A stretch of 64,000 nucleotides of DNA. Source: Candidatus Woesearchaeota archaeon CG10_big_fil_rev_8_21_14_0_10_37_12 (GTDB lineage Archaea > Nanobdellota > Nanobdellia > Woesearchaeales > ARS49). Made by a program: the position numbers and the translations under genes. Every line of letters starts with the position of its first letter. Within the stretch, counting starts at the first letter, position 1. The notes below the pieces were generated by a model. It was not told where the DNA came from and did no database searches. It saw only the letters and a list, made by a program, of their open reading frames with translations. The stretch is taken from positions 73,205 to 137,204 of the forward strand of contig PCYA01000014.1 of NCBI GenBank assembly GCA_002762795.1, read 5' to 3'. Below, one piece after another: positions 27,632-53,362 of this stretch.

Positions 27632-28738
27632 TTAGCTTAATCGCATAATCTCACCATTTTTAATTTGATTTTTTGCTGGTTTTGTTCCAATAACATCGCC
27701 ATTTTCATCAAATGATATCTTTCCAAGTATGCCGTCGTAAGGCTCCATTTCATAGAGCCAGTTTTTAATTGCAGTTGCGTCATAACCGACTGCCTCAATT
27801 GCGTTTTTTAGGATGTAAACTGAATCATATCGTGCTGCTGCTCCGTATTCAAATGCAGGATCTTCACCATACTTTTCTTTGTATTTTTCAAACAGTTTTT
27901 TCTTTTTTGGACTTTCTGATACTGGTGGTTCTGAGAAGAAGATCATCCCGTCTGCTAACGGGTGTTTTCTGACTTCTTTGTTTGTGCCGAAGAAATTTCC
28001 ATACAATTGTCCTTTGTAGCCAAGCTCCTGAAGTTGGTTCAATGAAGCAATTCCCGTTGCAGGAGTGTTTGGGTTCAAATAAATAACATCTGGCTTTTGC
28101 GCTAAAAGTTTAGTTAATTGAGTTCTATGGTCTTGAGAGTCTTGTTCGTAAAATTCTTCAATAACAGTTCTTCCTTCTTTTTCAAAATATTTTCTGATGA
28201 CTGTGCTGATGCCGACAGGATAGTTTGTTTGTTCTGTTATGAGCCCAACAGTTTTGTATTTGCTGAGCTCTTTTGCAAGAGAATTGCCCATTACTTCATC
28301 AGAATAAATTGTCCTGAAAATGTAATCTCCTGAATGAGTTATGTCTGGCAATGTTGCCCAAGCAGCAATAACAAGAACTTTGTTTTGTTCTGCTAAAGGT
28401 GAAATTCCAAAAGTCTCTGCACCACAAACAGACAATATTATTTTGACTTTATCAACTTCAATTAATTTCGTGGCTGCACTGACAGCACCTTTTGCAGTGC
28501 ATTTTCCATCTTCATAAATGACATTGACTTGTTTGCTATTAATTCCACCTGCTGAATTGATCTCATTAAGTGCAATTTCTATAACATTTTTTTCTAATAT
28601 GCCATAAATTGCAGAATCTCCAGATAATGGACCAACAAAGCCAATAGTTATTGTGTCTTCTGCTGTTGTTGCACCTGTGAGTGCTTGTCCGCAGCTAATT
28701 AATGATAGTAATACAAATAGTAAGAGTGGTTTTTTCAT
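27632..28738 (-). CDS. LivK-like (Peripla_BP_6) substrate-binding lipoprotein, orphan (module 1)
   Basis: Lipobox LISC. IGFVGPLSGDSAIYG...ALNEINSAGGINSKQVNVIYEDGKC follows the branched-chain amino acid binding protein fold signature. No permease or ATPase is adjacent. Confidence 0.75.
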   Translation of the reverse strand: MKKPLLLFVLLSLISCGQALTGATTAEDTITIGFVGPLSGDSAIYGILEKNVIEIALNEINSAGGINSKQVNVIYEDGKCTAKGAVSAATKLIEVDKVKIILSVCGAETFGISPLAEQNKVLVIAAWATLPDITHSGDYIFRTIYSDEVMGNSLAKELSKYKTVGLITEQTNYPVGISTVIRKYFEKEGRTVIEEFYEQDSQDHRTQLTKLLAQKPDVIYLNPNTPATGIASLNQLQELGYKGQLYGNFFGTNKEVRKHPLADGMIFFSEPPVSESPKKKKLFEKYKEKYGEDPAFEYGAAARYDSVYILKNAIEAVGYDATAIKNWLYEMEPYDGILGKISFDENGDVIGTKPAKNQIKNGEIMRLS

Positions 28739-29250
28739 GGACTTTCCCTCTGAAATGGTGCTAGATATCCCACCGTGCGGGCAAGGTTGTCTGAGTCAGA
28801 ATACACACCGGATTGTTTAAATGCGTCAAATTCTTTTTCTGTTAGAAAGCGACAAGCCCATTTGATGAAGTCAGTTAGTAATTGCTCGCCATGAATCTGT
28901 ATTTTTTCAGAGGGCGTGTATCTGGTTGTTTGTTCTGATGTATTTAGTTCATAAGTGTCCATTGTGTAAAGAACGTCATGATATCTTGTTCTAAATCGAA
29001 TAAGTTCTGGAGCGGAAATAGGCTTTGGATCCTCAGATATAATAAAGACATGTGAACTAAAACCATCGAAGGCAAATCCCTTTGGCAGCAGTTCAATTCT
29101 TCCTCCAACAGGTATGTTTGCGTGCCATTTTGCAAGTCTATAATCTGCTCCTTGCCATTCGCAGACAGGACATTCATAGATTGGTGCTCCGTCTTCCTTT
29201 TTTCCTATTTCGATTGGTTCTAATTTACCTTCGAGGTCAACATCAATCAT
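28735..29250 (-). CDS. Hypothetical CxxC protein (paralog of 29247-29786)
   Basis: 171 aa with YECPVCEW...HANIPVGGRIELLPKGFAFDGF. It is in an operon with the binding protein through 4-nt overlaps. Confidence 0.4.
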   Translation of the reverse strand: MIDVDLEGKLEPIEIGKKEDGAPIYECPVCEWQGADYRLAKWHANIPVGGRIELLPKGFAFDGFSSHVFIISEDPKPISAPELIRFRTRYHDVLYTMDTYELNTSEQTTRYTPSEKIQIHGEQLLTDFIKWACRFLTEKEFDAFKQSGVYSDSDNLARTVGYLAPFQRESP

Positions 29251-29786
29251 TTCATTACCTCTGGACAGAATTTTTCAAAGCCTTCAACACGGTAAGTTAA
29301 ATTATCTAAATTTATTATGTTGATTTCTCTGGTAGCTTCATCACCAAATTTTGTTTCTAAAAATTCATCAAATTCTGATTTTTGTAATAATCTATATTGT
29401 CCTGCACGAAAATGTGTTTGTAATATGTTTGATGGTGGGCGCGACCGAAGTTCATCTTCTAAACGCCACCAGTTATTTTCACCAGTTTTTCCTGGAAAAT
29501 ACGTTATTCCATTATATCTGAAGTCGTGTGTTGAAAGTCCGAAGAAGGGAGGATCTGCTTTTTGTACTTGAGATGAATCGCCAATAACACACATACGTAT
29601 TAATTGTGAATCAGGATGTATTTCTCCAAACGTGAATCCATTTGGAAAAACCACCCCTCTTCCCAAAGGAATATCAACATGAGCTTTAGCCTCTTCATAT
29701 GTCCCAACAATTCGTTCTTCACAAGTTGGACAGCCATATATGCCTGTTTCAATTTCTCTCGATTCTATTGTCTTCGCTTCTCTCAT
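29247..29786 (-). CDS. Hypothetical CxxC protein (paralog of 28735-29250)
   Basis: 179 aa with YGCPTCEE...HVDIPLGRGVVFPNGFTFGEI. The motif spacing matches its neighbour, indicating a tandem duplication. Confidence 0.4.
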   Translation of the reverse strand: MREAKTIESREIETGIYGCPTCEERIVGTYEEAKAHVDIPLGRGVVFPNGFTFGEIHPDSQLIRMCVIGDSSQVQKADPPFFGLSTHDFRYNGITYFPGKTGENNWWRLEDELRSRPPSNILQTHFRAGQYRLLQKSEFDEFLETKFGDEATREINIINLDNLTYRVEGFEKFCPEVMK

Positions 29787-29917
29787 GTTCCACCACCCTG
29801 TAATATTTTTCTTTCCGAACGATAGTGAGGAGATAGAAAAATTATTTTAATCTTTCTCCCCCCTTTATACGTTAAAATAAGGCAAAGTTTAAATAATGCA
29901 AATTCTCAAACAAATAC

Positions 29918-30664
29918 ATGATAAATCAAGCATTACAACGAATCGGTTTGACTGATGGTGAAATCAAGGTTTACCTCGCATTACTAGAGCTTGGTTCTAC
30001 TTCAACAGGAAAACTCACAAAAAAGTCAGGTATTTCTGGCTCGAAAGTTTACGAGGTTCTTGATCGTTTGATGAACAAAGGATTAGCAAGTTTCATAATA
30101 AAAAATGGCGTAAAATATTTCGAAGCTACAAGACCAGAGCGTTTGTTAGATTATCTTGATGAAAAAGAAAGCGAGATAGAAAAAGAAAAAGAAGAAGTGC
30201 AAAAGATTCTTCCTCAGCTTCTCTTGAAACAGAAATCCGCGCAGGAAAGCGTTGCAAAAATATTTACTGGATGGGAAGGGATTAAAACAGCAAATGAAGA
30301 TATTATTCAAACACTAAAAAAAGGTGAAGAGTGGTTGAGCATGGGTTTAACAGAGCAGCCAAAATCTTGGGAGCTTTATTTCACAAAAAGACAGGAAACA
30401 AGATCAAAAAAAGGAATTAAGCTCAAGCATTTGTTGAATGAAAAATACAAGGCATTATACAAAGAACGAAAAAAGTTGCCATATTCTGAATATCGCTTTC
30501 TTCCAAAAAGTTTTGAAATGCCAACGAGCACTGAAATTTACAAAGATAAAGTGCTCATTTTGATTTTAGCAAAAGAAAGTCCGATGGCTATTATGATTAA
30601 GAACAAAGCAGTCGCAGAAAGTTTTAGAAAATATTTTTATGCATTGTGGGAAAAAATGAAATAA
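29918..30664 (+). CDS. TrmB-family transcriptional regulator
   Basis: N-terminal winged helix (LTDGEIKVYLALLELGSTSTGKLTKKSGISGSKVYEVLDRLMNKGLAS), a coiled linker, and a C-terminal effector domain. It is divergent from the binding-protein operon. Confidence 0.75.
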   Translation: MINQALQRIGLTDGEIKVYLALLELGSTSTGKLTKKSGISGSKVYEVLDRLMNKGLASFIIKNGVKYFEATRPERLLDYLDEKESEIEKEKEEVQKILPQLLLKQKSAQESVAKIFTGWEGIKTANEDIIQTLKKGEEWLSMGLTEQPKSWELYFTKRQETRSKKGIKLKHLLNEKYKALYKERKKLPYSEYRFLPKSFEMPTSTEIYKDKVLILILAKESPMAIMIKNKAVAESFRKYFYALWEKMK

Positions 30665-31420
30665 TTATCTCTTACTTTGTTTCCACATTAAGTTAAAGTA
30701 TTCCATAAAACTGTTTGCTACATCTTGTGATTTGATGTTGATTGTAGTTATTTGTTTTCCGAATATAATGATAAATGTTCTGTCTTGGTAAATATTAATT
30801 GCAACTGGTGAAACGTGTGAAATGAAACGTATTTCTGTATCCTTGAATTTGAGTTTTTGATATCTTTCATCTATTGTTCCTCTGGCTGATTCGTTGTACA
30901 ACATTTTTGTTTTTAATTTTTTCTGGTTTCTTATGTGGTGCAATTTTTCAAAATACGCCAGCACGTCTGGTCGTTCTTGTGCGCGTGTTCCTCCGATGAC
31001 GTATGAAGTTTCTCCTTTTTTCATGCGTTCTATTTGTTCTCTGAAAACTAGTTCCATTCCTTTGAAGCCTGTTAACAGTTCTACTTCTTGTTCTTCTTTT
31101 GATGCGTTGAATTTAGCAAACAACGCCGGCAAAATCGCTGTCGCTTCGTCCTCCAACTCTTTTAGTTTTTGTTTTCGTTCTTCAAGATAAGATAGAATAT
31201 TTTTTGGGCTTGTCGGCTTGAAGTGTTTAATGTTTTTCTTAACGTAAATAGAAACAAGTCCTTTTGCTTGTAATCGTTCCAATATTTCGTATACTTTTGA
31301 CCCTGCTATTTGTGATTTGTTAACAATGTCTCCTCTTGTTGAATTTCCAAGATCAAGTAACGCCAAATAGACTTTTGCTTCTGATTCTGTTAATCCGATT
31401 TCCTGCAAAACCGTTATCAT
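30665..31420 (-). CDS. TrmB-family transcriptional regulator
   Basis: 251 aa with the same architecture (LTESEAKVYLALLDLGNSTRGDIVNKSQIAGSKVYEILERLQAKGLV). It overlaps the upstream PIN gene by 4 nt. Confidence 0.75.
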   Translation of the reverse strand: MITVLQEIGLTESEAKVYLALLDLGNSTRGDIVNKSQIAGSKVYEILERLQAKGLVSIYVKKNIKHFKPTSPKNILSYLEERKQKLKELEDEATAILPALFAKFNASKEEQEVELLTGFKGMELVFREQIERMKKGETSYVIGGTRAQERPDVLAYFEKLHHIRNQKKLKTKMLYNESARGTIDERYQKLKFKDTEIRFISHVSPVAINIYQDRTFIIIFGKQITTINIKSQDVANSFMEYFNLMWKQSKR

Positions 31421-31836
31421 TTTGATGCCTCAAATTGAAATATTTCTTCAGATGTGTAAACAGTAATTTGTTTTTGTTTCTCTTTTAATTTCTTATCATT
31501 CGACCAGATTGCACATTTTTGTTTTAATGCAAGTGCAACATAGTGAATATCGTCTGGGTCAGGAGATATTCCTGCTGCTTGGTCTTTTAAATTCTGAAAT
31601 TCTTCAAATGGAATTATATTGATTTTGCTGTGTGTTAATATATTAAATAAAATCTCCTTGATTTCTGGCTGAGATAATCCCGTTTTTTCTTTAATTTCCA
31701 ATATATGTTTATTTATTTCTTCAAAAACAAATTCAGGCACACAAAATGAATGATTGCTGAACAAAAGAAAATATCTTGTATAACTATCTTTAATTAAAGC
31801 TGAGAATATGATGTTGGCATCAATTACAAGCTCCAT
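31417..31836 (-). CDS. vapC: PIN-domain ribonuclease (VapC-like toxin)
   Basis: 139 aa. The N-terminus LVIDANIIFSAL has the first acidic residue of a PIN domain, and later conserved D/E positions (PDPDDIHYVALA) are present. Confidence 0.65.
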   Translation of the reverse strand: MELVIDANIIFSALIKDSYTRYFLLFSNHSFCVPEFVFEEINKHILEIKEKTGLSQPEIKEILFNILTHSKINIIPFEEFQNLKDQAAGISPDPDDIHYVALALKQKCAIWSNDKKLKEKQKQITVYTSEEIFQFEASK

Positions 31837-32106
31837 CTATTGTCCTGCAAGAAAGCGTTTTGCTACTACTTTGTTGATTTTTCTGCCAAGTTCTAAAGCA
31901 TCTTTTTCAGTAAGCTTACTTTTTGATACGATTTCATCCATCTTTTTCAAGATAATTAATCTTTCTCGTATTGCTTGCCGAGCTACCTCTGACCAGTTCA
32001 TTTCTGGATGATTATCCATTTCCGACTTCATTTCTTCAGGTACTGCTAAAGTTATACTAACCATTTTATCACCTACGTTTAATACGTGTGATATGTATAT
32101 AAACAT
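31837..32106 (-). CDS. vapB: Ribbon-helix-helix (CopG/VapB-like) antitoxin
   Basis: The probable start is the internal Met, giving MVSITLAVPEEMKSEMD...WSEVARQAIRERL (RHH pattern). It directly abuts the PIN gene. Confidence 0.5.
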   Translation of the reverse strand: MFIYISHVLNVGDKMVSITLAVPEEMKSEMDNHPEMNWSEVARQAIRERLIILKKMDEIVSKSKLTEKDALELGRKINKVVAKRFLAGQ

Positions 32107-32182: not shown

Positions 32183-33271
32183 TTGGTGATTACAATGAAA
32201 CAAACAGCGATAACAACTACTGCAATTCTGCTTTTATTTTTAGCAGGTTGTGTAATAGAAACAAGTAAAGAAGACACAATAAAGCTTGGCGCGATTATGA
32301 GTTTAACAGGTTTTGCGTCAGATTACGGAACAAATTCTCAGAAAGGCGCTCAATTAGCTGTTGAAGAAATCAATGCGAATGGTGGAATTAACGGCAAACA
32401 AATAGAATTAATTTTTGAAGATGATCGCACTGATGGGAAAGCTGCTGTTTCGGGAGCTACAAAATTAATTGAAATTGATAACGTTGATGCAATTATTGGA
32501 GGAACATGGGATTTAAGCTTAGAACCAATTGCTCCATTAGCAGACCAGCACAACATAATCATCATCAACCCTTCAACAGGAAACACAAAAGATACAAGAC
32601 TTGCAAAAAATGTTTTTATCACATGGCCTGCTATAAAATATCAAGTATATGAATTAGAAGAAACATTAACACAGGAAAACATCACAACAGCCGTTGTTAT
32701 TAGAAATGCTGGTGCGTGGTCTCAATCACAAGAAACACATCTGGAAAAACTCCTGGAAAAAATAAATGGGAGTATCCTGAAACTAATGATTGGTTATGAA
32801 GTTGATAATAATGATTTCCGTTCTGAGATAAGTATCGCTAAACAATTAAATCCAGATTTGTTATATCTCGGTCTTGGTTATAACGATGCTGCAAATGTAG
32901 TGCAGTTCACTCAAGAGCAGGATTTTCATCCAGTAATCGTAACATTAAGCGGCGCTTTTGAATACGCTATTGAAAAAGGAAGTATCAAGAAAGAACACCT
33001 CAAAAAAACATACATTCCAGACGTTATCCCAAACGAAAATACAGAGTTTTACAAAAAGTTTGAAACAAGATTTGGTAAACCTCCGGGAATTACTGCTGAT
33101 ACTGCATACAAAGCAGTAATGCTCCTTGCAGAAGCGTGGGAGAAAACAGGAACAACAAACACAGATGAAGTTCGAGATTACCTAAACTCGCTTGACTTCT
33201 TTGATGAGAATGGTGATGCAAAAAAACCTGTTCCAGTGCGAAAAATTGAGAGCAGAACGTATGTTGAATAA
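32183..33271 (+). CDS. LivK-like substrate-binding lipoprotein, orphan (module 2)
   Basis: Lipobox LAGC. IKLGAIMSLTGFASDYG...AVEEINANGGINGKQIELIFEDDRTDG matches the family signature. Confidence 0.75.
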   Translation: MVITMKQTAITTTAILLLFLAGCVIETSKEDTIKLGAIMSLTGFASDYGTNSQKGAQLAVEEINANGGINGKQIELIFEDDRTDGKAAVSGATKLIEIDNVDAIIGGTWDLSLEPIAPLADQHNIIIINPSTGNTKDTRLAKNVFITWPAIKYQVYELEETLTQENITTAVVIRNAGAWSQSQETHLEKLLEKINGSILKLMIGYEVDNNDFRSEISIAKQLNPDLLYLGLGYNDAANVVQFTQEQDFHPVIVTLSGAFEYAIEKGSIKKEHLKKTYIPDVIPNENTEFYKKFETRFGKPPGITADTAYKAVMLLAEAWEKTGTTNTDEVRDYLNSLDFFDENGDAKKPVPVRKIESRTYVE

Positions 33272-33314: not shown

Positions 33315-33695
33315 ATGAAACAAGTTCCAGGCTCATTAAGAAATTGGTTCACCATCCACTTCATAGCCGATATTATTTTTGCAGTTTCGTTGTTATTTTT
33401 TCCAGAATATTTTCTTTCATTTTTTGGTTTTAACACGGCAGAACCACTGCTTGCCAGATTAGTCGGGGCTGCATTAATCGGAATTGGTGGAACTTCATTG
33501 TTAATGAGAACCAAATCTGTTGAGAGTTTTCAAACAATGCTTACTTTGAAAATATTGTGGTCGTACACTGCAATTATTTGTTTTGTAGTTGCACTGTTCC
33601 AAGGAAGTCCAGCAATTACGTGGTTGTTTCTTGCTATTTTTGTGTTGTTTGCAATTGTTTGGACGTATTATAAAAGAAAGTTACAAACCAAGTAG
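33315..33695 (+). CDS. Hypothetical small membrane protein (4 predicted helices)
   Basis: 126-aa hydrophobic ORF downstream of the binding protein. Confidence 0.35.
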   Translation: MKQVPGSLRNWFTIHFIADIIFAVSLLFFPEYFLSFFGFNTAEPLLARLVGAALIGIGGTSLLMRTKSVESFQTMLTLKILWSYTAIICFVVALFQGSPAITWLFLAIFVLFAIVWTYYKRKLQTK

Positions 33696-33882: not shown

Positions 33883-34821
33883 TTATTTTCTAACTATTTT
33901 TTCAAGTGGATATCTGTTCACAAACATCCAGTCTTTTACGTTGTAAACTTCCCAGTCTAGCAAGTTATCTCCTAATGTGTCAGCAATTATTTCAAGGACT
34001 TGTTTGTATTCTTCAAATGTTTTGGCAAATATTTGTGTGAAAAAAGTTCCTTGCTCTAATTCCAATAAGTAAGGTATTTTCTTAGCTTTTTCAAAAATTT
34101 GAAGTGCTTGTGCGTATGAAGTATTCTTTGTTTTGATCAGTAACATATCTACTTGTGTGTGAAATTTTGTTCTGCTTGGCTGCGCAAGGAATAAAGGGAA
34201 GAATCCTTGTTTTTGAAGTTTTTTGAAGCGATACATAACAACATCATAGGTTAATTTTGTTTTTCGCGCAAGTTCAAGCATTGAATCTCTTCCTCCCCCA
34301 TGTCCAAGAACAGTTACAATTTTTACGTCTTTTTCGTCGAGATCAATCTTTTTTGGTCTCTTCACAGGTTTATTTTTCATCTTTATCGGAATATCATATA
34401 CTGAAAAGGGAATGAATGTTTCCTTGCTCATAACATGTGTTTCAAAAGTGATTGCGATCTGTTCAAAATATTTAATTAATTGTTTTCTTTCTTTGTCAGT
34501 CAGAAATGTTAGTAATGCATAGTTCATTTTATGCAGCAAATGAAACAATCCTGTTACTGCTTTATTTTTAGTAATTTCTTGTTCAAATGATTTTAGCTTA
34601 TTAATGGGAATTTGAACAAAAAATAGCTCGACTGGCAAAGGCAGCATATCCCATTGAAGAATTGCATCATATCCTGAAATATAGCCTTCTTTTTCCAAGC
34701 GTTGAATTCTGTAAACAACTGTTGACTGCGAAAGCTTTGTTAGTTTTGATAGTTTTGTTGTTGATATTCTGCAATTATGGGTTAAATTTTCAAATATGAT
34801 TTGGTCTTTTTTGTCCAACAT
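33883..34821 (-). CDS. Transcriptional regulator with two winged-helix (Lrp/AsnC-like) modules
   Basis: 312 aa. HTH segments are at the N-terminus (CRISTTKLSKLTKLSQSTVVYRIQRLEKEGYI) and at ~170-215 (LELARKTKLTYDVVMYRFKKLQKQGFF). It is divergent from binding-protein module 3. Confidence 0.55.
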   Translation of the reverse strand: MLDKKDQIIFENLTHNCRISTTKLSKLTKLSQSTVVYRIQRLEKEGYISGYDAILQWDMLPLPVELFFVQIPINKLKSFEQEITKNKAVTGLFHLLHKMNYALLTFLTDKERKQLIKYFEQIAITFETHVMSKETFIPFSVYDIPIKMKNKPVKRPKKIDLDEKDVKIVTVLGHGGGRDSMLELARKTKLTYDVVMYRFKKLQKQGFFPLFLAQPSRTKFHTQVDMLLIKTKNTSYAQALQIFEKAKKIPYLLELEQGTFFTQIFAKTFEEYKQVLEIIADTLGDNLLDWEVYNVKDWMFVNRYPLEKIVRK

Positions 34822-34916
34822 AAGAAGATAAATGACTGTTCTTTTTTTAAATTTTCCTAAATTTATCGAAAAAGAGGCAAAAAAGTTGATATATTAGATG
34901 AGCTACTGTATTTTCG

Positions 34917-36020
34917 GTGGTAAAAATCATGAAGAAATTCGTACTCAGTATTCTGGCATTTATTTTTTTATTCTCATGTGCATCTCAAAGTGATGAAGTC
35001 GTTATTGGTGCTATTTTCCCATTAACTGGCGATTACTCATCTATGGGCGAAAGTTACTTGTCTGCATTAGAGATTGCTGCAGAACAAGCAAATGTTAAAT
35101 TTATAGTTGAGAACGAGGGTAGTTGTGATGTAAAATCTGCATTAACTGCTGCACAAAAACTTGTGACTATTGACAAGGTTGATTTTTTAATTGGTCCTGT
35201 TTGTTTAATCACATTTAATGCTGTGTTGCCGTTTGCTGAAGAAAATAATATTGCAATGTTTGGTCCTTCAGTTGATCAAACTATTATTGATGAACAAAGC
35301 GAGACGTATAAAAATGTTGCAGTTGGTTTGTATCCTGCATTTCATAAAACGTGGTATCAACTTGCAGAAGAAGCATACAAAAAAGGGAAAAAAATTGCCG
35401 TTCTACAAACTGTTGATGAAGGTCCTGAACGAAATGTTGCAAAATTCACGGATAAATATGAAGAACTTGGTGGAGATATTATTTTGCATGAGCGTGTTGA
35501 TGCTGGTACAAAAGATTTCAGAACATTGCTTTTGAAGCTTGACAATTTAGCCAAGAAGAAGTCTGGCTTAATTATTTGGCCGCATTTAGCCAGAGACGAT
35601 AGAATTTTGTTCTATAAACAAAAAGACGAACTAAATGTCTTGCAAGGAGCTTATTTATTAGGAGATTTGTTTATTGATCTTGAATTACAGCCATTTTTGG
35701 ATGCGTTAGGAGAAGAAACATTAGAAGGTGTTATATCTACAACATACAAAGATGCTATGTCTGAAGAGTTCAAAAAAGCATTAAAAAACAAATTTAATGT
35801 TGATCCTGTTCTTGGAACCGATAACGTGTATGACGCAGTAGTTCATGGTTCTGAAATTAGTAAAGACTGCAATAAAAATTCTGAATGTATAATTTCAAGA
35901 TTCAAAAATACAGATTATGCTGGCGTCTCTGGAAAGTTAGAGTTTGATGAAACAGGCAACAGAGTTGGAACAGTTGTGACAAGAATACTAAATAATGGAA
36001 CGTTTGTGATTAAAAATTAG
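34917..36020 (+). CDS. LivK-like substrate-binding lipoprotein, orphan (module 3)
   Basis: Lipobox LFSC. VVIGAIFPLTGDYSSMG...ALEIAAEQANVKF. It is more divergent but keeps the same fold signature and length. Confidence 0.65.
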   Translation: MVKIMKKFVLSILAFIFLFSCASQSDEVVIGAIFPLTGDYSSMGESYLSALEIAAEQANVKFIVENEGSCDVKSALTAAQKLVTIDKVDFLIGPVCLITFNAVLPFAEENNIAMFGPSVDQTIIDEQSETYKNVAVGLYPAFHKTWYQLAEEAYKKGKKIAVLQTVDEGPERNVAKFTDKYEELGGDIILHERVDAGTKDFRTLLLKLDNLAKKKSGLIIWPHLARDDRILFYKQKDELNVLQGAYLLGDLFIDLELQPFLDALGEETLEGVISTTYKDAMSEEFKKALKNKFNVDPVLGTDNVYDAVVHGSEISKDCNKNSECIISRFKNTDYAGVSGKLEFDETGNRVGTVVTRILNNGTFVIKN

Positions 36021-36568: not shown

Positions 36569-36693
36569 GCTGACGTCGCGTAATCTGGTATCGCACAAGC
36601 CTGGAAATTTGCGAGTTCACGAGCAAAATTCGGGAATTCCTTCACGAGAGCTTGACCCGCAAGGGTATCCCGGTTCAAATCCGGGCGTCAGCG
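36569..36693 (+). tRNA. tRNA-Ser (anticodon GGA) with a ~43-nt intron after position 37 and a long variable arm
   Basis: Acceptor GCUGACG/CGUCAGC with discriminator G. The D-loop contains GG. Anticodon stem CAAGC...GCUUG is separated by loop CUGGAA plus an intron, giving anticodon GGA. The variable arm is long (ACCCGCAAGGGUAU), and the T-arm is CCCGG-UUCAAAU-CCGGG. Confidence 0.7.
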
Positions 36694-40753: not shown

Positions 40754-40823
40754 ACTGCATAGCAGTTTGTACTCTTATTTAAAATTTGTTATTTGTTATC
40801 AATATTTTATAACAACAATTTAA

Positions 40824-42527: not shown

Positions 42528-42540
42528 TCAACAGTTACTG

Positions 42541-43848: not shown

Positions 43849-44274
43849 ATGAAAGGGTGGTATGTATTTTTATTGCTTGCATTAGTCGCGTGCTCTACGC
43901 CTGAGCAATTGACAGCTCAAGTAGTTCAGGAATCACCGCAGCAAGTTGAGCCAACAAAACCTGTGCAACAGACTGCGCAAGCAACTGTTTGTACGCCTTC
44001 AAGAAGTATTGGTGAAGCGTGCAAGCAGGATTGTAATTGTCTTGAACCAAGTAACTGTGTTAATGGCGTTTGCCGTTTGACTTATTTGAGAAAAGGCGAA
44101 CAGTGTGTTGAAAATGAGCAGTGTTTAACAAATTATTGCACGAATGATTACAAATGCGGAGTTATATCAGGGGAAACGAAAACAGTCCATTGCAAACGTC
44201 AATGTTCTGATTATTATGATCGCAGTGAGAGATGTTTTACCATGTGCGAGGAATCTTTTTCAGAAAAAGTTTAA
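43849..44274 (+). CDS. Small Cys-rich secreted lipoprotein
   Basis: 141 aa with lipobox LVAC and about 16 Cys arranged in repeated CxxxC/CxNxxC spacings. Confidence 0.45.
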   Translation: MKGWYVFLLLALVACSTPEQLTAQVVQESPQQVEPTKPVQQTAQATVCTPSRSIGEACKQDCNCLEPSNCVNGVCRLTYLRKGEQCVENEQCLTNYCTNDYKCGVISGETKTVHCKRQCSDYYDRSERCFTMCEESFSEKV

Positions 44275-46665: not shown

Positions 46666-46762
46666 GCCGAAGTAGTATAGTCCGGTCAAGTATGCGGCCC
46701 TCTCGAATACAATAAAAGTATAGAGTCCGGCTGAAACCCGGGTTCGAATCCCGGCTTCGGCA
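46666..46762 (+). tRNA. tRNA-like gene with a ~25-nt insertion (probable non-canonical intron). Structure and anticodon are unresolved; one candidate is GAA (Phe).
   Basis: Perfect 7-bp acceptor GCCGAAG/CUUCGGC with discriminator A, and a canonical T-arm CCGGG-UUCGAAU-CCCGG. A Phe-like anticodon hairpin UCCGG-CUGAAAC-CCGGG is present but overlaps the T-stem. There is an internal near-duplication (AGTATAGTCCGG ... AGTATAGAGTCCGG). No standard cloverleaf can be drawn without removing an insertion. Confidence 0.45.
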
Positions 46763-46970: not shown

Positions 46971-47764
46971 TTTTGCTTTGTCCCTTCCACAAACCAGTCC
47001 CACATTTTTGGTTTGCCTGAGAATGCGATGTATCCTGATACGTCTCTTCCCCACGGATAGTACACTTTGCTTAATGTAATGTTCTTAAATCCTGCGTCTT
47101 TTAATCTAACGTCTAATTCAAATCCGTAATAGAATTTTTGTACTGTTCCTTCATAAGTGTATGTTGCTTTGACGAAATCGTGTTGTTTTTCTTCGAGTAA
47201 TTGTTTTGTTTTTTTGCGTGCTTTTTGTTCGTCTTTTTCTTCTGCTATTTGGCTGTCGAGAATGAGCATTCCCTGATATAATACTGCGTCCATTGATGGA
47301 AATATGCCAAAGAATTTGCCGTTTGGTTTCAAAACAGAATGTAGTGCTTCAAGGGCGGTTTTCACATCAGTAATTGTTGGTCCTAATACTGAATTTATTG
47401 CGAGCACAACATCAAATTTTTGTTTGTATTTGTCGAGTTGAGAAAAGGAGTTCACACCATAGGTTATGTTTTTTGCCGAATTTATTTTCTTTGCTTCTTT
47501 GATCATTTCAGGAGAAAAATCAAAGGCGTAAACGTGTTTGAATTGTTTTGCAAGTTTGTCCAGTATTTCTCCTCGTCCACAGCCTATGTCTGCTATTGTT
47601 TTGTTTTTCTTGTCAGGAATTTTGTTTAATTTTCGAAATAAGGGATTGTTTACTCCTTTGCGTAATGGGCTGACTATTTCTTCATGGTATATTTTTGCTA
47701 TTTTATCCCAATCTTTTGGTTTCATTTTTCTTGCATCTCCCGTTTTTGTGTGTATTTTTTCCAA
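46967..47764 (-). CDS. Class I SAM-dependent methyltransferase
   Basis: Motif I IADIGCGRGEIL, the acidic motif II region YAFDFS, and motif III VLAINSVLG. Confidence 0.75.
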   Translation of the reverse strand: MEKIHTKTGDARKMKPKDWDKIAKIYHEEIVSPLRKGVNNPLFRKLNKIPDKKNKTIADIGCGRGEILDKLAKQFKHVYAFDFSPEMIKEAKKINSAKNITYGVNSFSQLDKYKQKFDVVLAINSVLGPTITDVKTALEALHSVLKPNGKFFGIFPSMDAVLYQGMLILDSQIAEEKDEQKARKKTKQLLEEKQHDFVKATYTYEGTVQKFYYGFELDVRLKDAGFKNITLSKVYYPWGRDVSGYIAFSGKPKMWDWFVEGTKQN

Positions 47765-49500
47765 ATCTTTAAGAATTCTCCATTTTTCAATACTTCAGTC
47801 AATGTTCCTCTAGCAACTATATTGCCTTTTTTAAACAAATAAATTTTATCAAAGTGAGTAAGCAAATGCAATCTATGTATTGAGGAAATTATGGTTTTAT
47901 TTTTGAATTCTGAAAATATTCCTTTGTATATTTGTAGTTCATTTTTTGGATCGACACTGCTTGTTGGTTCATCCAATAATAAGATTGGTTTGTTTTCAGA
48001 AGCAAGCAGGCCTCTTGTGAGGGCCAGTCTTTGTTTCTCGCCACCGCTTAAATTGACTCCTTTTTCTACTATTGATGAGTCTAATCCTCTTGGAAGTTTT
48101 TTAATAATTTTTGTAAAGCAAGCAATGTTTCCATATTTTTTTATTTGACTGTCAGAATATCTGCCGCCCATTGTTATGTTTTCTCGTATTGTTGTTGTGA
48201 AAAGTTCAGGATCTTGTGGCAAAAGTAATATGTTGGATCCTATCGCGTTAAATCCTTGCTGGATATGTTTATTATCTACAAGCAAGTTAACTTGTTTAGG
48301 TTTGTATAGTCCTCGAAGTAATTTAAGAAATGTTGTTTTTCCGCTACCACTCTCTCCAACAAGTGCTATTCTTTCGTTTCTTTTTATGGACAGCGATATT
48401 GAATTAAGATGTAATTCCCCTTCATCACCCGCATAATTAAAACTCAGGTTGTTGATGGATATTTTTTGCCAATTATTGTTAAGATTGATCTGTTTTATTG
48501 TTTGTTCATTTTTAAACTCATTGCTTATTTCTTCTGCATTCTCAACTGCAGTTTTCCATCTAACTATATCTCCATACCTGTAAGCAAATCTGAAAAATAT
48601 ATCCTTTATGCGCTCAACATATCCATACAGTGCGTAAAGTGATCCAATTAAAATGGGCAATCCTGCATGATAGTTTTTGAAGATGTAAGTTCCAAGAACT
48701 AAAAACATCATGATTCCTCCAAATAAAGATACCAAAAACCATTTCACTTCGTTAAGTTTAGCGTTTTCTTTGAATATTGAGAATGGTGCAAGCATTCTTT
48801 GAAGAATTTGTTTTGATGCAAGTTTTTCTAAACGTAAAATTACTACTGTTGTTATGTTGCTTATAGTATCGTAGACTTTTTCAGTTATTCTATTGTCTGC
48901 TAGATTTAACTCTCTATATTGTTTTCTTAATTTATTATCATATGTAAAAATAACATGCAAGGTTATCAGAATAACAAATGCAACAATGTATGCTGAATGA
49001 ATATTAAAATATACCAAAGCAAAGTAAGATCCTACTAGTTTCATTATTGTATCTATTACTTCAAAAGTAGTTCCTGAATACTGTTCAAGTGCAACTGTGC
49101 CTTTTTCTATTTTGTCAATAGTATTTCCTGAGTGATGGTTTGTATGCCAGTCCATTGGCAAATTCATTGTGCCATCAATCAAACTTTTCTTGTAATTGAC
49201 TTCAACCATGAATGCGTTTTTTCGTTCAATAACTCTTGCAGGCCCGTGAAAAATCCAAAACCCGAGAACAAGTAAGATAAATAAAAAGAGCAGTCCCAGA
49301 ATTGTTGGAATGTTGCCTGAATGAATTCCCTGTTCTTGAATTATATTCAATAATTTTGCAACAATGAGTGGCTCAAAGAATGCTACAATGCCTGAGCAAA
49401 AAAATAGGAAAGTACACAAAATCAATGAAGAACGATTTCCTTTTGAATAAGTCCACATTAATCTTGTTAAATAAATAATAGGATCGTCTTTAAAGCTCAT
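47722..49500 (-). CDS. ABC exporter, fused transmembrane domain and ATPase (MsbA-like half-transporter)
   Basis: 592 aa with six N-terminal helices. Walker A is GESGSGKTT, the signature is LSGGEKQRLALTRGL, and Walker B is ILLLDEPTSSVD. Confidence 0.8.
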   Translation of the reverse strand: MSFKDDPIIYLTRLMWTYSKGNRSSLILCTFLFFCSGIVAFFEPLIVAKLLNIIQEQGIHSGNIPTILGLLFLFILLVLGFWIFHGPARVIERKNAFMVEVNYKKSLIDGTMNLPMDWHTNHHSGNTIDKIEKGTVALEQYSGTTFEVIDTIMKLVGSYFALVYFNIHSAYIVAFVILITLHVIFTYDNKLRKQYRELNLADNRITEKVYDTISNITTVVILRLEKLASKQILQRMLAPFSIFKENAKLNEVKWFLVSLFGGIMMFLVLGTYIFKNYHAGLPILIGSLYALYGYVERIKDIFFRFAYRYGDIVRWKTAVENAEEISNEFKNEQTIKQINLNNNWQKISINNLSFNYAGDEGELHLNSISLSIKRNERIALVGESGSGKTTFLKLLRGLYKPKQVNLLVDNKHIQQGFNAIGSNILLLPQDPELFTTTIRENITMGGRYSDSQIKKYGNIACFTKIIKKLPRGLDSSIVEKGVNLSGGEKQRLALTRGLLASENKPILLLDEPTSSVDPKNELQIYKGIFSEFKNKTIISSIHRLHLLTHFDKIYLFKKGNIVARGTLTEVLKNGEFLKIWKKYTQKREMQEK

Positions 49501-49753: not shown

Positions 49754-49818
49754 AAAAGTGAGTTGTAAATCATTCAAAACAAGTTAAGAAAGAATAGCGA
49801 TAGCCATGGAGGATTAAA

Positions 49819-51081: not shown

Positions 51082-51181
51082 GTTTTTATATTTTTTATTA
51101 AATCTGATATTTAATAATCTGAATCAATAGTTCATAATTGATTAATAAATGGTCTTCTTCTAGGAGTGTGAGGTGAAAGTT

Positions 51182-51271
51182 ATGAAAAAGAAAATGTATG
51201 ACAGGCGTTTTGTTGGTGATTTGTATGACTTCGGGCAACCAAGTTGGGAGCAAACAGAAGAAGCTGCATAA
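51182..51271 (+). CDS. Candidate small ORF (29 aa)
   Basis: GAGGTGA sits 5 nt upstream of ATG. The sequence is MKKKMYDRRFVGDLYDFGQPSWEQTEEAA*. It is followed by a GC-richer structured region at 51290-51440. Confidence 0.25.
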   Translation: MKKKMYDRRFVGDLYDFGQPSWEQTEEAA

Positions 51272-51443
51272 TTTTTTGTTTTTTGTCAAGAGCCACTGGT
51301 GATCGCACTGCGGTACTCAACACCAGTGGCATGACGGTTCAGAAAGTCATAAGATAATATAGTCCAGTGGTTCTTGATCATGCTCGGAATGCCACTCGCT
51401 CCAGTAAACCACTCGTGATATACACGAATGGCATTCCGACATG

Positions 51444-52535
51444 TTAATTAATTGTTACAAACTTTCCATTGCGTGCTGTTTTTATGCTGACTTCTTCTCG
51501 TTGTCCGATGCCACGATTATCAACTGAAAGGTATCCGTTTGCTCCTTCATACCCCTCTATATTGTAAAGTTTTTGCTTGATGCATTCGCTATGATTTCCA
51601 CAAGTATCAAGTGCTTTTGCTAAAAGCATATAACTATCGTACGCGTTTGCTGCGTACAGTCCTGGTTCTTCTCCGTATTCAGCAAGGTATGCTTGTTTGA
51701 ATGCGATTTTGCGTGGCAAGTCTTTTGGGTCTTCAGGATACGTGTACACAACACGTTCTGCAAGTTTGCCAAGCTGATCAATGACGTTCTGATCCTGATA
51801 TAAGTTCCAAGTTAAAATGGGCAAATTTATGCCGAGTTCTTCTGCTTGTTTTACGAGAAGAATGCTGTCTGGAACGTACCCTAAAATATATATTGCCTCA
51901 GGGTCTTTGTTTGCGATTTTCATAAGATATGTTCGGAAGTCTGTTTCTTGAGTATCAAGACTATTTACATAGTATTCTTCAGCGGTAAACATAATATTGT
52001 TTGTGTCAAGTGCTTGTTTAAGTTCAGCAATGCTTTCTCGTCCAAGATCATCATCTATTGCAATTGCTGCAATTGAAGAATAATTTTTTTCTACTGCATA
52101 GTTTGTAATTGCAGTCATTTGTTTGTTCATTTCTGGAAGAAAACTGAAATGGTAATCGCCTGCCTCTGCGGTTGCTTGTAGCACCATGCCCAAGGTGATG
52201 CGCGGTGTTTGTGTTTCTTCAATGTAAGGTGCTGATGCAAGCAAGGAGACTGTACAAATAGGTCCAAGAATTGCATCAACGTCGTCCACAGTAAGTAGTT
52301 TTTGTGTTGCTAACACTCCTGTTTTTGGATCGCATTTGTCATCTTCTACAATAAGTTTGTATTGGTTGCCTGTTTCTTTTGCTGCAAGTTGTATACCGTT
52401 AAGTAATTCCTCGCCAAGATGTGCTGCTTTGCCTGTTTGCGGAATTAATATTCCTATTGTTGATTCTTGCACTGTTTGCGTGCACGATAGCAATAGGACT
52501 AATAAAATGACATAGTGTTTCATGTAACCACCCAA
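51444..52535 (-). CDS. LivK-like substrate-binding lipoprotein, orphan (module 5)
   Basis: Lipobox LLSC. TIGILIPQTGKAAHLG...AAKETGNQYKLIVEDDKCD. Confidence 0.75.
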   Translation of the reverse strand: MGGYMKHYVILLVLLLSCTQTVQESTIGILIPQTGKAAHLGEELLNGIQLAAKETGNQYKLIVEDDKCDPKTGVLATQKLLTVDDVDAILGPICTVSLLASAPYIEETQTPRITLGMVLQATAEAGDYHFSFLPEMNKQMTAITNYAVEKNYSSIAAIAIDDDLGRESIAELKQALDTNNIMFTAEEYYVNSLDTQETDFRTYLMKIANKDPEAIYILGYVPDSILLVKQAEELGINLPILTWNLYQDQNVIDQLGKLAERVVYTYPEDPKDLPRKIAFKQAYLAEYGEEPGLYAANAYDSYMLLAKALDTCGNHSECIKQKLYNIEGYEGANGYLSVDNRGIGQREEVSIKTARNGKFVTIN

Positions 52536-52630
52536 TTATAGAAAAAGCTAATTAAGTATTTTAAAATTTGTTACCCCTGTTGGAGGTATTAATGGCAAAA
52601 TTTTTAAAGACAGTTATATTCCGCAAATAG

Positions 52631-53362
52631 ATGGATTTGGAGTTGTTCAAAGAATTAGGGTTCACAGAACGCGAAGCAAAAGTGTATCTTGCATTGATAG
52701 AGCTTGGTTCAAGCACTGCTGGCCCAATAGCGGCGCGGTCTGGCTTGCAGCATGCAAAAGTTTATGAAACATTGCAGCGATTAATAGAAAAAGGATTGGT
52801 ACATTATATTGTTATTTCTAAAACAAAACACTTCAAGGCTGCGCCTCCTAAAGACATATTGGGACTATTAGATGATCGAAAAAGACGTTTTAAAGAAATT
52901 TTAAGCGAGTTGGAATTAAAGGAAAAATATGCAAAAGATCAGCAGATTGCAGTTGTACACGAGGGGTTTAAAGCATTTAAGGCATTGTTTGATCGCTTAG
53001 CAGATGAATTAAAAAAAGGCGATTGGTATTATGTGTTTCCGTTTAAAGAGGGGTATAAAACAAAAGCGATCCCTGCATTTTTTAGAACATTTCATAAAAA
53101 ATTAGAAGAAAAAAAAGTAGTTGATAAAGTGTTGAGCAATCGTGAAGTTAAAAAAGAGGTGTTAAGTACTTACAAAGATAACAAAAATATCAAGATCAAA
53201 TTTACTGATTTTAATGTTCCTATCGGAATTGTTATTATAAAGGGAAAAGTTATTCAGGTGACATGGGAGGATAAACCTACTGCGATTGAGATCGTATCAG
53301 CTCAAATTTATAAGCAATACAAAATATTTTTTGAGGATATGTGGGAAAAAGCAAGTAAATAA
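52631..53362 (+). CDS. TrmB-family transcriptional regulator
   Basis: 243 aa with N-terminal FTEREAKVYLALIELGSSTAGPIAARSGLQHAKVYETLQRLIEKGLV. Confidence 0.75.
   Translation: MDLELFKELGFTEREAKVYLALIELGSSTAGPIAARSGLQHAKVYETLQRLIEKGLVHYIVISKTKHFKAAPPKDILGLLDDRKRRFKEILSELELKEKYAKDQQIAVVHEGFKAFKALFDRLADELKKGDWYYVFPFKEGYKTKAIPAFFRTFHKKLEEKKVVDKVLSNREVKKEVLSTYKDNKNIKIKFTDFNVPIGIVIIKGKVIQVTWEDKPTAIEIVSAQIYKQYKIFFEDMWEKASK

Follow-up and report, generated by a model that had tools for sequence, protein, structure and literature searches.

LivK-type binding lipoproteins beside TrmBL2-like regulators in a woesearchaeal archaeon: possible additional receptors for a Liv-type ABC importer

RESULTS AND DISCUSSION

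The DNA analyzed here (the window, 64 kb of a Candidatus Woesearchaeota contig) carries what appears to be a loose grouping of cassettes, each a regulator plus a receptor, for an ABC importer of the Liv type (HAAT family). The same cassette is usual beside LivHMGF in ultra-small bacteria and archaea, and the binding proteins are therefore most likely extra receptor subunits and not a new kind of receptor. On balance we favor the explanation that they are additional or alternative receptors with different pockets, each locally regulated, for one Liv-type importer encoded elsewhere in the genome. Each LivK-fold protein would be exported and then tethered to the membrane through its lipobox cysteine, and each gene would be read from a short divergent promoter region common to it and a regulator of the TrmBL2-like or tandem-HTH type. 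The six binding proteins differ in their pocket residues and so probably capture different small solutes, which they would pass to a common LivHMGF-type permease/ATPase, and each regulator would switch the adjoining receptor gene, and itself, through a module-specific operator. The cassette is widespread across ultra-small bacteria and archaea and is not confined to this lineage.

Six LivK-type lipoproteins with different pockets

27632 to 28738, minus strand: SBP1, LivK-type substrate-binding lipoprotein, 368 aa, lipobox LISC (PF13458, E = 8e-54)
32183 to 33271, plus strand: SBP2, LivK-type lipoprotein, lipobox LAGC (PF13458, E = 1e-49)
34917 to 36020, plus strand: SBP3, LivK-type lipoprotein, lipobox LFSC (PF13458, E = 3e-29)
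42541 to 43665, plus strand: SBP4, LivK-type lipoprotein, lipobox LISC (PF13458, E = 2e-49)
51444 to 52535, minus strand: SBP5, LivK-type lipoprotein, lipobox LLSC (PF13458, E = 4e-49)
12834 to 13577, plus strand: Lgt, bacterial-type prolipoprotein diacylglyceryl transferase (PF01790, E = 2.7e-75, full length)

A sequence-only reading of the window had described five LivK-like lipoproteins of the Peripla_BP_6 family, and all five fit PF13458 in an HMM search, far above the Pfam gathering score, and carry a signal peptide and a lipobox. They are only 25 to 27% identical to one another, SBP3 being the most divergent. A sixth TrmB-binding-protein pair, SBP6 and its TrmB, lies ~9.4 to 10 kb past the right end of the window; SBP6 also has a lipobox, so that all six binding proteins differ in this from most CPR homologs. 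The longest open reading frames of SBP2 to SBP5 probably start too early: gene calls place the likely starts at 32195 for SBP2 (358 aa), 34929 for SBP3 (363 aa), and 52523 for SBP5 (359 aa), and for SBP4 a likely start at 42583 (360 aa) is deduced rather than gene-called. The lipoboxes are probably lipidated by the Lgt encoded 14 kb away, which is 41% identical to an annotated bacterial lgt product, matches E. coli Lgt (PDB 5AZB) with an E value of 3e-41, and keeps the equivalents of the catalytic Arg, His, and Tyr.

SBP1 matches the LivK structure 3TD9 in sequence (E = 9e-33), and its AlphaFold model (pLDDT 91.9) superimposes on 3TD9 with a Foldseek TM score of 0.77 to 0.80; SBP1 accordingly has the LivK/LivJ fold. 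Comparison with its closest ortholog, 85% identical, gave a dN/dS of 0.12, strong purifying selection which implies that SBP1 does something. A comparison of pocket residues showed that these positions vary among the six proteins. SBP6 retains Ser79/Thr102 as in LivJ, together with an acidic residue at position 226, the LivJ contacts to the alpha-amino-acid are absent from the five proteins of the window, and none of the six reaches the NCBIfam cut-offs for the LivJ or UrtA subfamilies. Every binding protein of the window has a homolog outside this genome, often in a CPR bacterium, that is at least as similar to it as are its paralogs in the window; the best homolog of SBP4, for example, is a bacterial protein at 47% identity (locus L026). 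Given this low mutual identity, the closer homologs elsewhere, and the presence of the cassette in Patescibacteria and DPANN, the proposal that the proteins form a lineage-specific expanded family is not borne out.

Regulators and gene arrangement

28735 to 29786, minus strand: two paralogous CxxC proteins, of 171 aa (28735 to 29250) and 179 aa (29247 to 29786), co-operonic with SBP1
29918 to 30664, plus strand: TrmB1, TrmBL2-like wHTH regulator, 248 aa (PF01978, E = 7e-16), divergent from the operon of the 179-aa and 171-aa proteins and SBP1
30665 to 32106, minus strand: operon of an RHH antitoxin (31837 to 32106), a PIN toxin (31417 to 31836), and TrmB2 (30665 to 31420; 251 aa; PF01978, E = 2e-16), divergent from SBP2
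33315 to 33695, plus strand: DUF8292 protein, 126 aa, four transmembrane segments by hydropathy (PF26941, precomputed match)
33883 to 34821, minus strand: tandem AsnC-type HTH regulator, 312 aa (two PF13404 stretches), divergent from SBP3
40028 to 41699: TrmB6 (40028 to 40753, minus strand; PF01978, E = 1e-12) and a divergent 291-aa ORF (40824 to 41699, plus strand)
41772 to 42527, minus strand: TrmB4, TrmBL2-like regulator, 251 aa (PF01978, E = 2e-16), divergent from SBP4
52631 to 53362, plus strand: TrmB5, TrmBL2-like regulator, 243 aa (PF01978, E = 3e-18), divergent from SBP5

The regulators are of the types previously proposed: the ORFs at 29918, 30665, 41772, 52631, and 40028 contain the TrmB wHTH domain (PF01978, E = 1e-12 to 3e-18), and the one at 33883 is a tandem wHTH protein with two AsnC-type HTH stretches, in which Pfam found no PF01037 ligand domain. 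TrmB6 is indeed paired with an unrelated ORF, whose 291-aa product has no match in Pfam or NCBIfam. The TrmB-like proteins have the architecture of TrmBL2 and lack the sugar-binding subdomain of TrmB; the TrmB1 model (pLDDT 86.5) has TrmBL2 (5BQT) as its top Foldseek match (E = 1.6e-14).

Each lipoprotein had been read as divergently paired with a regulator. This holds directly for three pairs (33883/34917, 41772/42541, and 51444/52631), a number equaled or exceeded in ~0.1% of gene-order shuffles of the window, but at SBP1 and SBP2 co-oriented genes intervene. SBP1 comes third in a tightly packed operon (29786 to 27632, with two 4-nt overlaps) lying opposite TrmB1, after two CxxC proteins that are 26% identical to each other (E = 2e-7) and have no Pfam match; a C terminus like that of the 179-aa protein also precedes the SBP1 ortholog in locus L177. 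SBP2 lies opposite the RHH-PIN-TrmB2 operon (32106 to 30665), TrmB2 not being its immediate neighbor. The PIN toxin (PF10130 PIN_2, E = 9e-26) and TrmB2 genes overlap by 4 nt, and the antitoxin is of the RHH_12 type by precomputed match.

Candidate operators and the case for local regulation

29858 to 29879, plus strand: conserved cis element CCCCCC-TTT-ATACGTTAAAATA, ~40 to 60 nt upstream of TrmB1, unique in the window
42524 to 42548, no strand: perfect 12-1-12 palindrome TCATTCAACAGT-T-ACTGTTGAATGA, 25 bp, overlapping the TrmB4 start codon

The element CCCCCC-TTT-ATACGTTAAAATA is a candidate operator or promoter element of TrmB1. In the form CCCCC-N3-ATACGTTA it is present in a single copy at each of the loci that encode a TrmB1 ortholog and is absent from 168 other loci. 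The palindrome TCATTCAACAGT-T-ACTGTTGAATGA, a candidate TrmB4 operator, has a core with a single occurrence in the window (0.11 expected by chance at up to three mismatches). At other loci, TCAACA-N5-TGTTGA and related half-sites recur between TrmB and SBP genes.

These elements bear on the alternative that the TrmB-like proteins are general or autoregulated DNA-binding proteins alongside which the SBP genes happened to land, an alternative that concerns regulation only, is compatible with either transporter scenario below, and is weighed independently of them. TrmBL2 is a chromatin protein, and the regulators here share its architecture, without the sugar-binding subdomain. TrmB1 is conserved far above SBP1 (65 to 80% versus ~50% identity), with relatives in more than 100 protein clusters of Woese-, Pace-, and Nanoarchaeia at 63 to 80% identity, and its upstream element is retained whichever gene is the divergent neighbor. 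In none of the four contexts reached through the regulator itself does a TrmB1 ortholog have an SBP neighbor, so TrmB1, at least, is not dedicated to SBP1; together with the TrmBL2 architecture, this speaks against the view of each regulator as a dedicated sensor. Furthermore, the nearest relatives of the window's TrmB proteins are one another, whereas those of its SBPs are proteins of other genomes. We nevertheless regard mere adjacency as distinctly improbable. Divergent regulator-SBP pairs number 50 in 29 of 80 related loci and span two domains, and the chance probability of the arrangement in the window is ~0.001. Across 49 modules, regulator similarity correlates with SBP similarity, weakly but significantly (rho = 0.23, Mantel P ~ 0.01), with regulator and SBP nearest neighbors concordant in 8 of the 49. 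The TrmB4 palindrome lies within the 55-nt spacer between TrmB4 and SBP4, and 26 of 53 TrmB-divergent spacers have TTGACAA half-sites, an enrichment over other divergent spacers (5 of 183).

Linkage of the cassette to Liv transporters in related loci

The comparison set consisted of 80 genome loci with the SBP1-family motif, nearly all from CPR or DPANN. LivH and/or LivM lie within 10 kb in 53 of them (E = 1e-16 to 1e-66), and multiple SBP paralogs are frequently interleaved with livH, livM, livG, and livF. The 50 divergent units (44 with TrmB, 6 with a tandem-HTH regulator) are found across Patescibacteria and DPANN, and 18 of the 29 loci that hold them also encode LivH/M. The modular regulator-receptor architecture proposed for the window is upheld. 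In L020 and L026, arrays of five to six units end in a true LivF (E = 2e-66 and 5e-64). Tandem-HTH-like regulators (23 to 28% identity) lie divergently upstream of an SBP gene in seven DPANN loci (L015, L016, L024, L041, L059, L065, and L068), where LivH/LivM follow most of the SBP genes; this is the 33883/34917 arrangement plus a permease. In three bacterial genomes, an isolated TrmB-SBP cassette and Liv transporter genes occupy different contigs: JACKFN01 (isolated unit in L046, SBP-LivHMGF in L076), CAYIYW01 (isolated unit in L019, SBP-LivH-LivM in L073), and CAIJXO01 (isolated unit in L022, TrmB-SBP units adjoining a true LivF, E = 1e-53, in L018).

Search for a transporter in this genome

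No LivH or LivM permease, even as a relic, was found across 89.5 kb of the genome (window plus flanks). E. coli LivH/M gave no phmmer match in the window, ~100 CPR/DPANN LivH/M proteins gave no tblastn match in window plus flanks, and a LivM scan of JGI metagenomes returned no contig of this organism among the matches listed. The stated absence of LivH/M/G/F-type permeases and ATPases from the 64 kb holds for these types alone: other ABC systems are present, of the MacB/FtsX type (4722 to 9019) and as a fused protein (47722 to 49500). We consider it highly unlikely that one of these, or the DUF8292 protein, is a non-Liv membrane partner. The window does contain ABC systems, and the DUF8292 gene lies 43 nt past SBP2 on the same strand. 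However, a DUF8292 homolog adjoins binding proteins in none of the 80 related loci, the fused protein has an exporter-type architecture (ABC_membrane plus ABC_tran), MacB/FtsX systems are not known to work with LivK-type binding proteins, and such a neighbor stands beside only one of the six SBPs.

Rather more plausible, although still unlikely in our judgment, is that LivHMGF has been lost and that the six lipoproteins are true orphans that serve an episymbiont as surface traps for ligands, as receptors for host metabolites, or in adhesion. The 89.5 kb hold neither a permease nor a relic of one. In the closest woesearchaeal relatives (L003 and L178) the SBP1 module likewise lacks a permease within 10 kb, which leaves some probability for true orphans, and in L005 a 50- to 70-residue LivF relic follows the SBP1 ortholog, with no more of the transporter there; together these suggest that the transporter may have been lost in this lineage. 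The non-canonical pockets, the purifying selection on SBP1, and the lipoboxes, unlike most CPR homologs, fit this reading as well, and liv sets are often incomplete in Woesearchaeota metagenome-assembled genomes, a published survey having found a complete livKHMGF set in only one of nine (PMC11606122). Against loss, two-thirds of the related loci link this SBP subfamily to the transporter, and other genomes combine remote modules with Liv transporter genes. The cluster contains no kinase or chemoreceptor as a membrane signaling partner, and adjoining cytoplasmic regulators make most sense with ligand uptake. Incompleteness of metagenome-assembled genomes also makes absence look commoner in published surveys than it is. 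It had been argued that the binding proteins cannot be classical ABC importer components; with 53 of 80 loci linked to LivH/LivM and three genomes holding both arrangements, this does not follow. Indeed, a regulator in the cytoplasm can respond to what an extracellular receptor binds only if that ligand is brought into the cell, and the model of the sequence-only reading therefore implicitly needs a transporter. Its observation is confirmed and its interpretation partly supported, nutrient scavenging by a reduced-genome archaeon being plausible. For these reasons we infer that a shared Liv-type importer is encoded elsewhere in this genome.

Comparison with known systems

In E. coli, LivJ and LivK are both served by LivHMGF. 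The binding proteins there have the same fold and Pfam family as those described here, several of differing specificity can use one permease/ATPase, as we propose, and livJ is annotated as a transcription unit apart from livKHMGF, which recalls the separate SBP genes of the window. An Lrp/AsnC-type regulator controls the E. coli SBP genes (Haney 1992, as cited in PMC8050422). In contrast to E. coli, there are six receptors here, 25 to 35% identical and below the LivJ subfamily cut-off, with LivJ ligand contacts mostly substituted; they are lipid-anchored rather than periplasmic, their regulators are mostly TrmBL2-like, one per receptor, and the surrounding 89.5 kb lack a permease.

TrmB of Thermococcus and Pyrococcus is a local repressor with a palindromic operator, encoded beside a trehalose/maltose ABC operon, and here too a TrmB-family wHTH gene adjoins genes of an SBP-dependent ABC type. 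The regulators of the window differ in aligning end to end with TrmBL2 (241 to 251 aa) without the sugar-binding C-terminal subdomain, the partner is LivK-type and not MalE-type, and the unit is repeated. With TrmBL2 itself, the archaeal chromatin-like global repressor (PDB 5BOX/5BQT), they share a full-length profile and fold match, comprising the wHTH, coiled coil, and PLD-like C-terminal domain. Identity is ~20%, however, and the paralogs here number at least seven per genome, all of them at divergent promoters, which would point to local rather than global roles.

Rhodopseudomonas palustris and its relatives have orphan LivK-like binders of aromatic acids, with many Peripla_BP_6 paralogs, non-amino-acid pockets, and some paralogs encoded away from any permease; proteins of this type are among the Foldseek neighbors of the SBP1 model. 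Those are large genomes with several LivHMGF sets, whereas this one is ~1 Mb with wHTH-paired paralogs. Also comparable are the liv-cluster arrays of CPR/Patescibacteria (L020, L026, and L079), of which our literature search found no published description as TrmB-SBP cassette arrays. They contain the identical two-gene divergent unit and the same SBP subfamily, in up to six tandem units, but mostly inside livHMGF clusters, and their SBPs usually have an uncleaved transmembrane anchor in place of the lipobox.

Architecture of the modules

Six modules, five in the window and one to its right, combine a gene for a LivK-type lipoprotein (SBP1 to SBP6) with a gene for a regulator, and TrmB6 is a further TrmB-type regulator of the window:

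27632-28738 (-): SBP1, with the regulator TrmB1 (29918-30664)
32183-33271 (+): SBP2, with the regulator TrmB2 (30665-31420)
34917-36020 (+): SBP3, with the tandem-HTH regulator (33883-34821)
42541-43665 (+): SBP4, with the regulator TrmB4 (41772-42527)
51444-52535 (-): SBP5, with the regulator TrmB5 (52631-53362)
40028-40753: TrmB6
L175 10684-12664, equivalent to about 73443-75423 in window numbering (outside the window): SBP6 (371 aa, lipobox LAAC), with the divergent regulator TrmB7 (251 aa)

Flanks of the same contig (~6 kb leftward and ~19 kb rightward, the latter including a 10-kb extension anchored on a VIT1 gene) bring the readable sequence to 89.5 kb of a roughly 1-Mb genome. The Woesearchaeote belongs to the Crystal Geyser CG10 source set, and the gene order of the window is repeated in independent JGI, ENA, and Logan assemblies, the window corresponding to positions 11815-75814 of the 130-kb ENA contig k141_175184. 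GC content is even across the window (33 to 41%), archaeal housekeeping genes lie between the modules (ribosomal protein L13e, TruD, SepF, AspRS, helicases, and tRNAs, some with introns), and the region is ordinary chromosome with no obvious island.

The five regulator-receptor modules proposed in the sequence-only reading proved to be real and nonrandom; ~0.1% of gene-order shuffles gave three or more direct pairs. Divergent pairing, which that reading had ascribed to all five, is direct for SBP3, SBP4, and SBP5, with spacers, measured from the corrected start codons, of 107 (34822-34928), ~55, and 107 nt, but not for SBP1, which comes third, after the genes for two paralogous CxxC proteins, in an operon with translational coupling that faces TrmB1, or for SBP2, which faces an RHH-PIN-TrmB2 operon. 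The CxxC proteins, u179 and u171 (179 and 171 aa; 28735-29786, minus strand), are predicted to be cotranscribed with the secreted SBP1, the operon being read from the sequence. Among loci retrieved from other genomes or assemblies (L numbers), a u179-like C terminus precedes the SBP1 ortholog in L177 (positions 3-116), and a 190-aa gene with no detected similarity occupies the u179/u171 position in L178 (9400-9972). The RHH and PIN genes form a VapBC-like pair in one operon with TrmB2 (30665-32106, minus strand; 4-nt overlap), and a second toxin-antitoxin pair, MazE-like and ParE-like, lies at 14231-14763.

Family, fold, and ligand pocket of the binding proteins

As had been proposed, SBP1 to SBP5 fit Peripla_BP_6 (PF13458) in an HMM search, all far above the gathering score of 31.7 (103 to 184 bits; E values of 3e-29 to 8e-54), with pairwise identities among them of 25 to 27%. 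Of the six, SBP6 comes closest to LivJ (E = 1e-40 against the Escherichia coli protein), and SBP1 matches solved LivK/LivJ binding proteins (E = 9e-33 for 3TD9). The predicted structure of SBP1, the sole binding protein modeled, has the two-lobe type I periplasmic-binding-protein fold (pLDDT 91.9), and its best Foldseek match is LivK 3TD9 (TM 0.77/0.80), along with LivJ and other ABC binding proteins. None of the six SBPs reached the NCBIfam cutoffs for the LivJ or urea-binding subfamilies, scores for NF011933, the LivJ/LivK branched-chain subfamily, being 46 to 166 bits against a cutoff of 477.

In LivJ, we take the contacts to the alpha-amino and alpha-carboxylate groups to be Ser79, Ala100, Thr102, Tyr202, and Glu226. 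When the ligand pockets were compared, in an alignment whose 20 to 25% identity makes single columns uncertain, all five positions were found to be replaced, and differently so, in SBP1 to SBP5, and SBP6 was found to retain Ser79, Thr102, and an acidic residue at position 226. Taken together, the family and fold matches, the missed subfamily cutoffs, and the replaced contacts point to genuine Peripla_BP_6 members with diverse predicted ligands. A dN/dS of 0.12 against an 85%-identical ortholog indicates strong purifying selection on SBP1.

Membrane anchoring

All six SBPs have a hydrophobic N terminus followed by a lipobox Cys, as read from the sequence. We judged them to fit a definition that combines the motif [LVI][ASTVI][GAS]C with an Lgt enzyme in the genome, noting that some of the lipobox-like motifs have a noncanonical residue at -2 or -3 (e.g., LFSC), and the SBPs are accordingly listed here as predicted Lgt-dependent bacterial-type lipoproteins. 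The relevant genes of the window are:

12834-13577 (+): bacterial-type Lgt (PF01790, E = 2.7e-75, full length)
11999-12847 (+): gene upstream of and overlapping the Lgt gene, encoding a 282-aa protein with ~7 transmembrane segments and no family match

The predicted product of the first gene is a bona fide bacterial-type Lgt encoded on an archaeal contig. It is 41% identical to an annotated bacterial Lgt, and comparison with E. coli Lgt (5AZB; E = 3e-41) showed that the equivalents of Y26, H103, R143, N146, R239, and E243 are retained. The gene order, with SepF, Alba, and S17e beside the Lgt gene, is reproduced in an independent ENA assembly. The window yielded no signal peptidase II. Hong et al. 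2025 (PMC12462473) state that archaea have no known Lgt homolog. How archaeal lipoproteins are made is a question on which a genuine bacterial-type Lgt in an archaeon has direct bearing. Among homologs in loci L003 to L082, 171 of 183 from CPR have a hydrophobic N terminus with no Cys close by, resembling an uncleaved transmembrane anchor, and a Cys is present in 17 of 39 from DPANN; the predicted anchor type of the SBPs thus differs by domain. A small lipoprotein (43849-44274, plus strand; lipobox LVAC) follows SBP4.

Regulators and candidate operators

The five TrmB-type proteins of the window score 48 to 66 bits against the TrmB wHTH family PF01978 (gathering score, 25.6). They are each other's nearest relatives, and a profile search with all five for paralogs outside the window returned only the window genes and TrmB1 orthologs; TrmB7, from the right flank, matches TrmB1 with an E value of 9e-55. 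The window proteins differ from TrmB and TrmBL1 in length (241 to 251 aa versus ~340), in score (28 to 48 bits against NCBIfam cutoffs of 600 to 650), and in the absence of the sugar-binding C-terminal effector domain, Pfam reporting the N-terminal wHTH alone and no match to the TrmB effector-domain family. Their likeness is to TrmBL2: a profile of the five (positions 4-253) aligns to residues 7-262 of 5BOX (E = 6e-8), and the top eight Foldseek matches of a TrmB1 model (pLDDT 86.5) are all TrmBL2 (E = 1.6e-14 to 6.5e-12). The C-terminal half of this model matches Zucchini, which has a PLD-like fold, and the TrmBL2 architecture of wHTH, coiled coil, and PLD-like C-terminal domain was found. 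The tandem-HTH regulator (33883-34821) contains two AsnC-type HTH stretches and has no PF01037 match; unlike Lrp/AsnC, it has no detected RAM/AsnC_trans_reg ligand-binding domain, and on this domain content it is a tandem-HTH relative and not a canonical Lrp.

Each receptor had been placed under its own dedicated sensor-regulator, a description that the data do not support in two respects. Because the sugar-binding part of TrmB is missing, a sensor role for the window TrmBs is unproven. Furthermore, four loci found by way of the regulator have two small unrelated genes and no binding protein opposite the TrmB1 ortholog; those of L091 and L092 do not detectably resemble u179/u171 or one another. 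With SBP1 orthologs as the starting point, the TrmB1 and SBP1 orthologs were found to face each other in three loci (L003, L005, and L178). TrmB1 is among the most conserved proteins in this analysis (65 to 80% identity across Woese-, Pace-, and Nanoarchaeia), and more than 100 protein clusters in these groups are 63 to 80% identical to it.

No operator common to all modules was found in the window, where the TrmB1 element and the TrmB4 palindrome are each unique. The former, CCCCC-N3-ATACGTTA, lies 40 to 60 nt upstream of every TrmB1 ortholog start (29858-29879 in the window) and recurs in L003, L005, L091, L092, L173, L174, and L178 whatever the opposite gene; it occurs in none of 168 other loci compared. 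The latter is a perfect 25-bp palindrome (42524-42548) over the start codon of TrmB4, inside the 55-nt spacer that TrmB4 and SBP4 have in common. A sigma-70 promoter scan gave matches at chance level, as expected for an archaeon. Among the CPR loci L007 to L079, TTGACAA/TTGTCAA, sometimes as inverted repeats, occurs in 26 of 53 TrmB-divergent spacers versus 5 of 183 other divergent spacers, and may be half of an operator or may simply reflect strong -35 boxes.

Relationship of the modules to Liv transporters

The window contains no LivH or LivM, as judged by phmmer with E. coli LivHMGF probes, and to this extent the assertion that it lacks a Liv-type transporter stands; it does encode a fused ABC exporter and an ABC system of the MacB/FtsX type. 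The absence of LivH and LivM extends to the entire 89.5 kb by tblastn with ~100 CPR/DPANN proteins and those of E. coli, and relaxed searches there for LivF, LivG, LivH, or LivM relics gave noise-level matches only. Among the matches listed in a LivM alignment scan of JGI metagenomes, only L122 comes from a sibling sample; this contig is bacterial, as an MreC-like fragment on it shows.

The five SBP paralogs have diverged too far for their alignment to seed a search for loci. A motif search of species-representative genomes yielded 80 loci, nearly all of them in Patescibacteria/CPR or DPANN archaea, which were probed by phmmer with E. coli LivHMGF and the window proteins. LivH and/or LivM lies within 10 kb in 53 of the 80, and the binding-protein genes, up to 12 per locus, are often interleaved with livH, livM, livG, and livF. 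The divergent regulator-binding-protein unit occurs in 29 loci (44 TrmB units and 6 tandem-HTH units), in 18 of them together with LivH/M; L020 and L026 hold arrays of five or six units ending in a true LivF, and the usual DPANN order is a tandem-HTH gene divergent from an SBP gene, followed by LivH, LivM, LivG, and LivF. The nearest relatives of the SBPs lie in other genomes and are often bacterial (SBP6 with L007, 54%; SBP4 with L026, 47%), and similarity among regulators correlates weakly with that among binding proteins (rho = 0.23, p ~0.01). Recurrence across CPR/DPANN liv loci means that the cassette is not an invention of this lineage, contrary to the suggestion of a lineage-specific family, and on these comparisons we regard it as a widespread building block of liv systems in ultrasmall prokaryotes. 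The cassettes appear to move between bacteria and archaea. Published work has described the exchange of genes between Patescibacteria and DPANN (PMC12455944). A literature search for TrmB-LivK cassettes or multiple livK genes in CPR/DPANN found no published description.

It had also been held that the binding proteins cannot be importer components. The 53 loci with LivH/LivM speak against this, as do three bacterial genomes in which isolated units coexist with Liv genes on another contig: JACKFN01 (unit L046; SBP-LivHMGF in L076), CAYIYW01 (unit L019; SBP-LivH-LivM in L073), and CAIJXO01 (unit L022; TrmB-SBP units beside a true LivF in L018). Closer to the window, the three nearest Woesearchaeal SBP1 modules have no nearby permease, and in L005 a LivF remnant (4041-4259; the N-terminal 50 to 70 residues, at most 59% identical to DPANN/CPR LivF) directly follows the SBP1 ortholog, with unrelated genes on the other strand thereafter. 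The nearest relatives are represented by JAHWIP01 (YT2_088), JAUXTV01, which carries the LivF relic, the Ga0118719_1000212 bin, and GCA_053532935.1. In a published survey, one of nine Woesearchaeota MAGs had a complete liv set (PMC11606122). With the permease-free modules of the closest relatives, the LivF relic, and this survey set against it, the reading that we somewhat favor is that the SBPs are receptors for a Liv importer encoded elsewhere in the genome. That they are true orphans in a genome devoid of a Liv transporter agrees with the modules of the closest relatives, sits less easily with the coexistence of isolated units and Liv genes in the three bacterial genomes, and seems unlikely to us; such an absence would make the SBPs an unusual example of binding proteins that a symbiont has conserved without a transporter.

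We give rather little credence to a more elaborate form of loss. The Woesearchaeote, perhaps with its whole sublineage, would have lost LivHMGF and kept six or more diverged, lipid-anchored LivK-fold proteins, all under purifying selection and each paired with a regulator, as transporter-independent surface receptors anchored by a horizontally acquired Lgt pathway; to our knowledge, this pathway is not known from archaea. Such receptors might, for example, capture or recognize host-derived metabolites at the episymbiotic interface.

With an importer encoded elsewhere as the favored reading, the module set is best filed as ABC uptake of the HAAT type with multiple receptors, each of which has its own TrmBL2-like or tandem-HTH regulator, a scheme common to CPR and DPANN. 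If so, genome-reduced DPANN and CPR organisms may broaden their nutrient range cheaply by adding cassettes to one common ABC translocator. For organisms about whose nutrient dependencies little is known, the modules offer a concrete, testable set of receptors together with candidate operators.

Other features of the region

Three large proteins with signal peptides, none of which matches a known family, are encoded to the right of SBP6 (L175 14432-19520). The left end of the window cuts the gene for a 1,727-aa DUF7379/DUF676 esterase-like protein (window 141-2906, plus strand; L087 11743-16926). Rfam matches of 97 to 125 nt without an ARAGORN report mark three probable intron-containing tRNAs:

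3480-3588 (-): probable intron-containing tRNA
36569-36693 (+): probable intron-containing tRNA
46666-46762 (+): probable intron-containing tRNA
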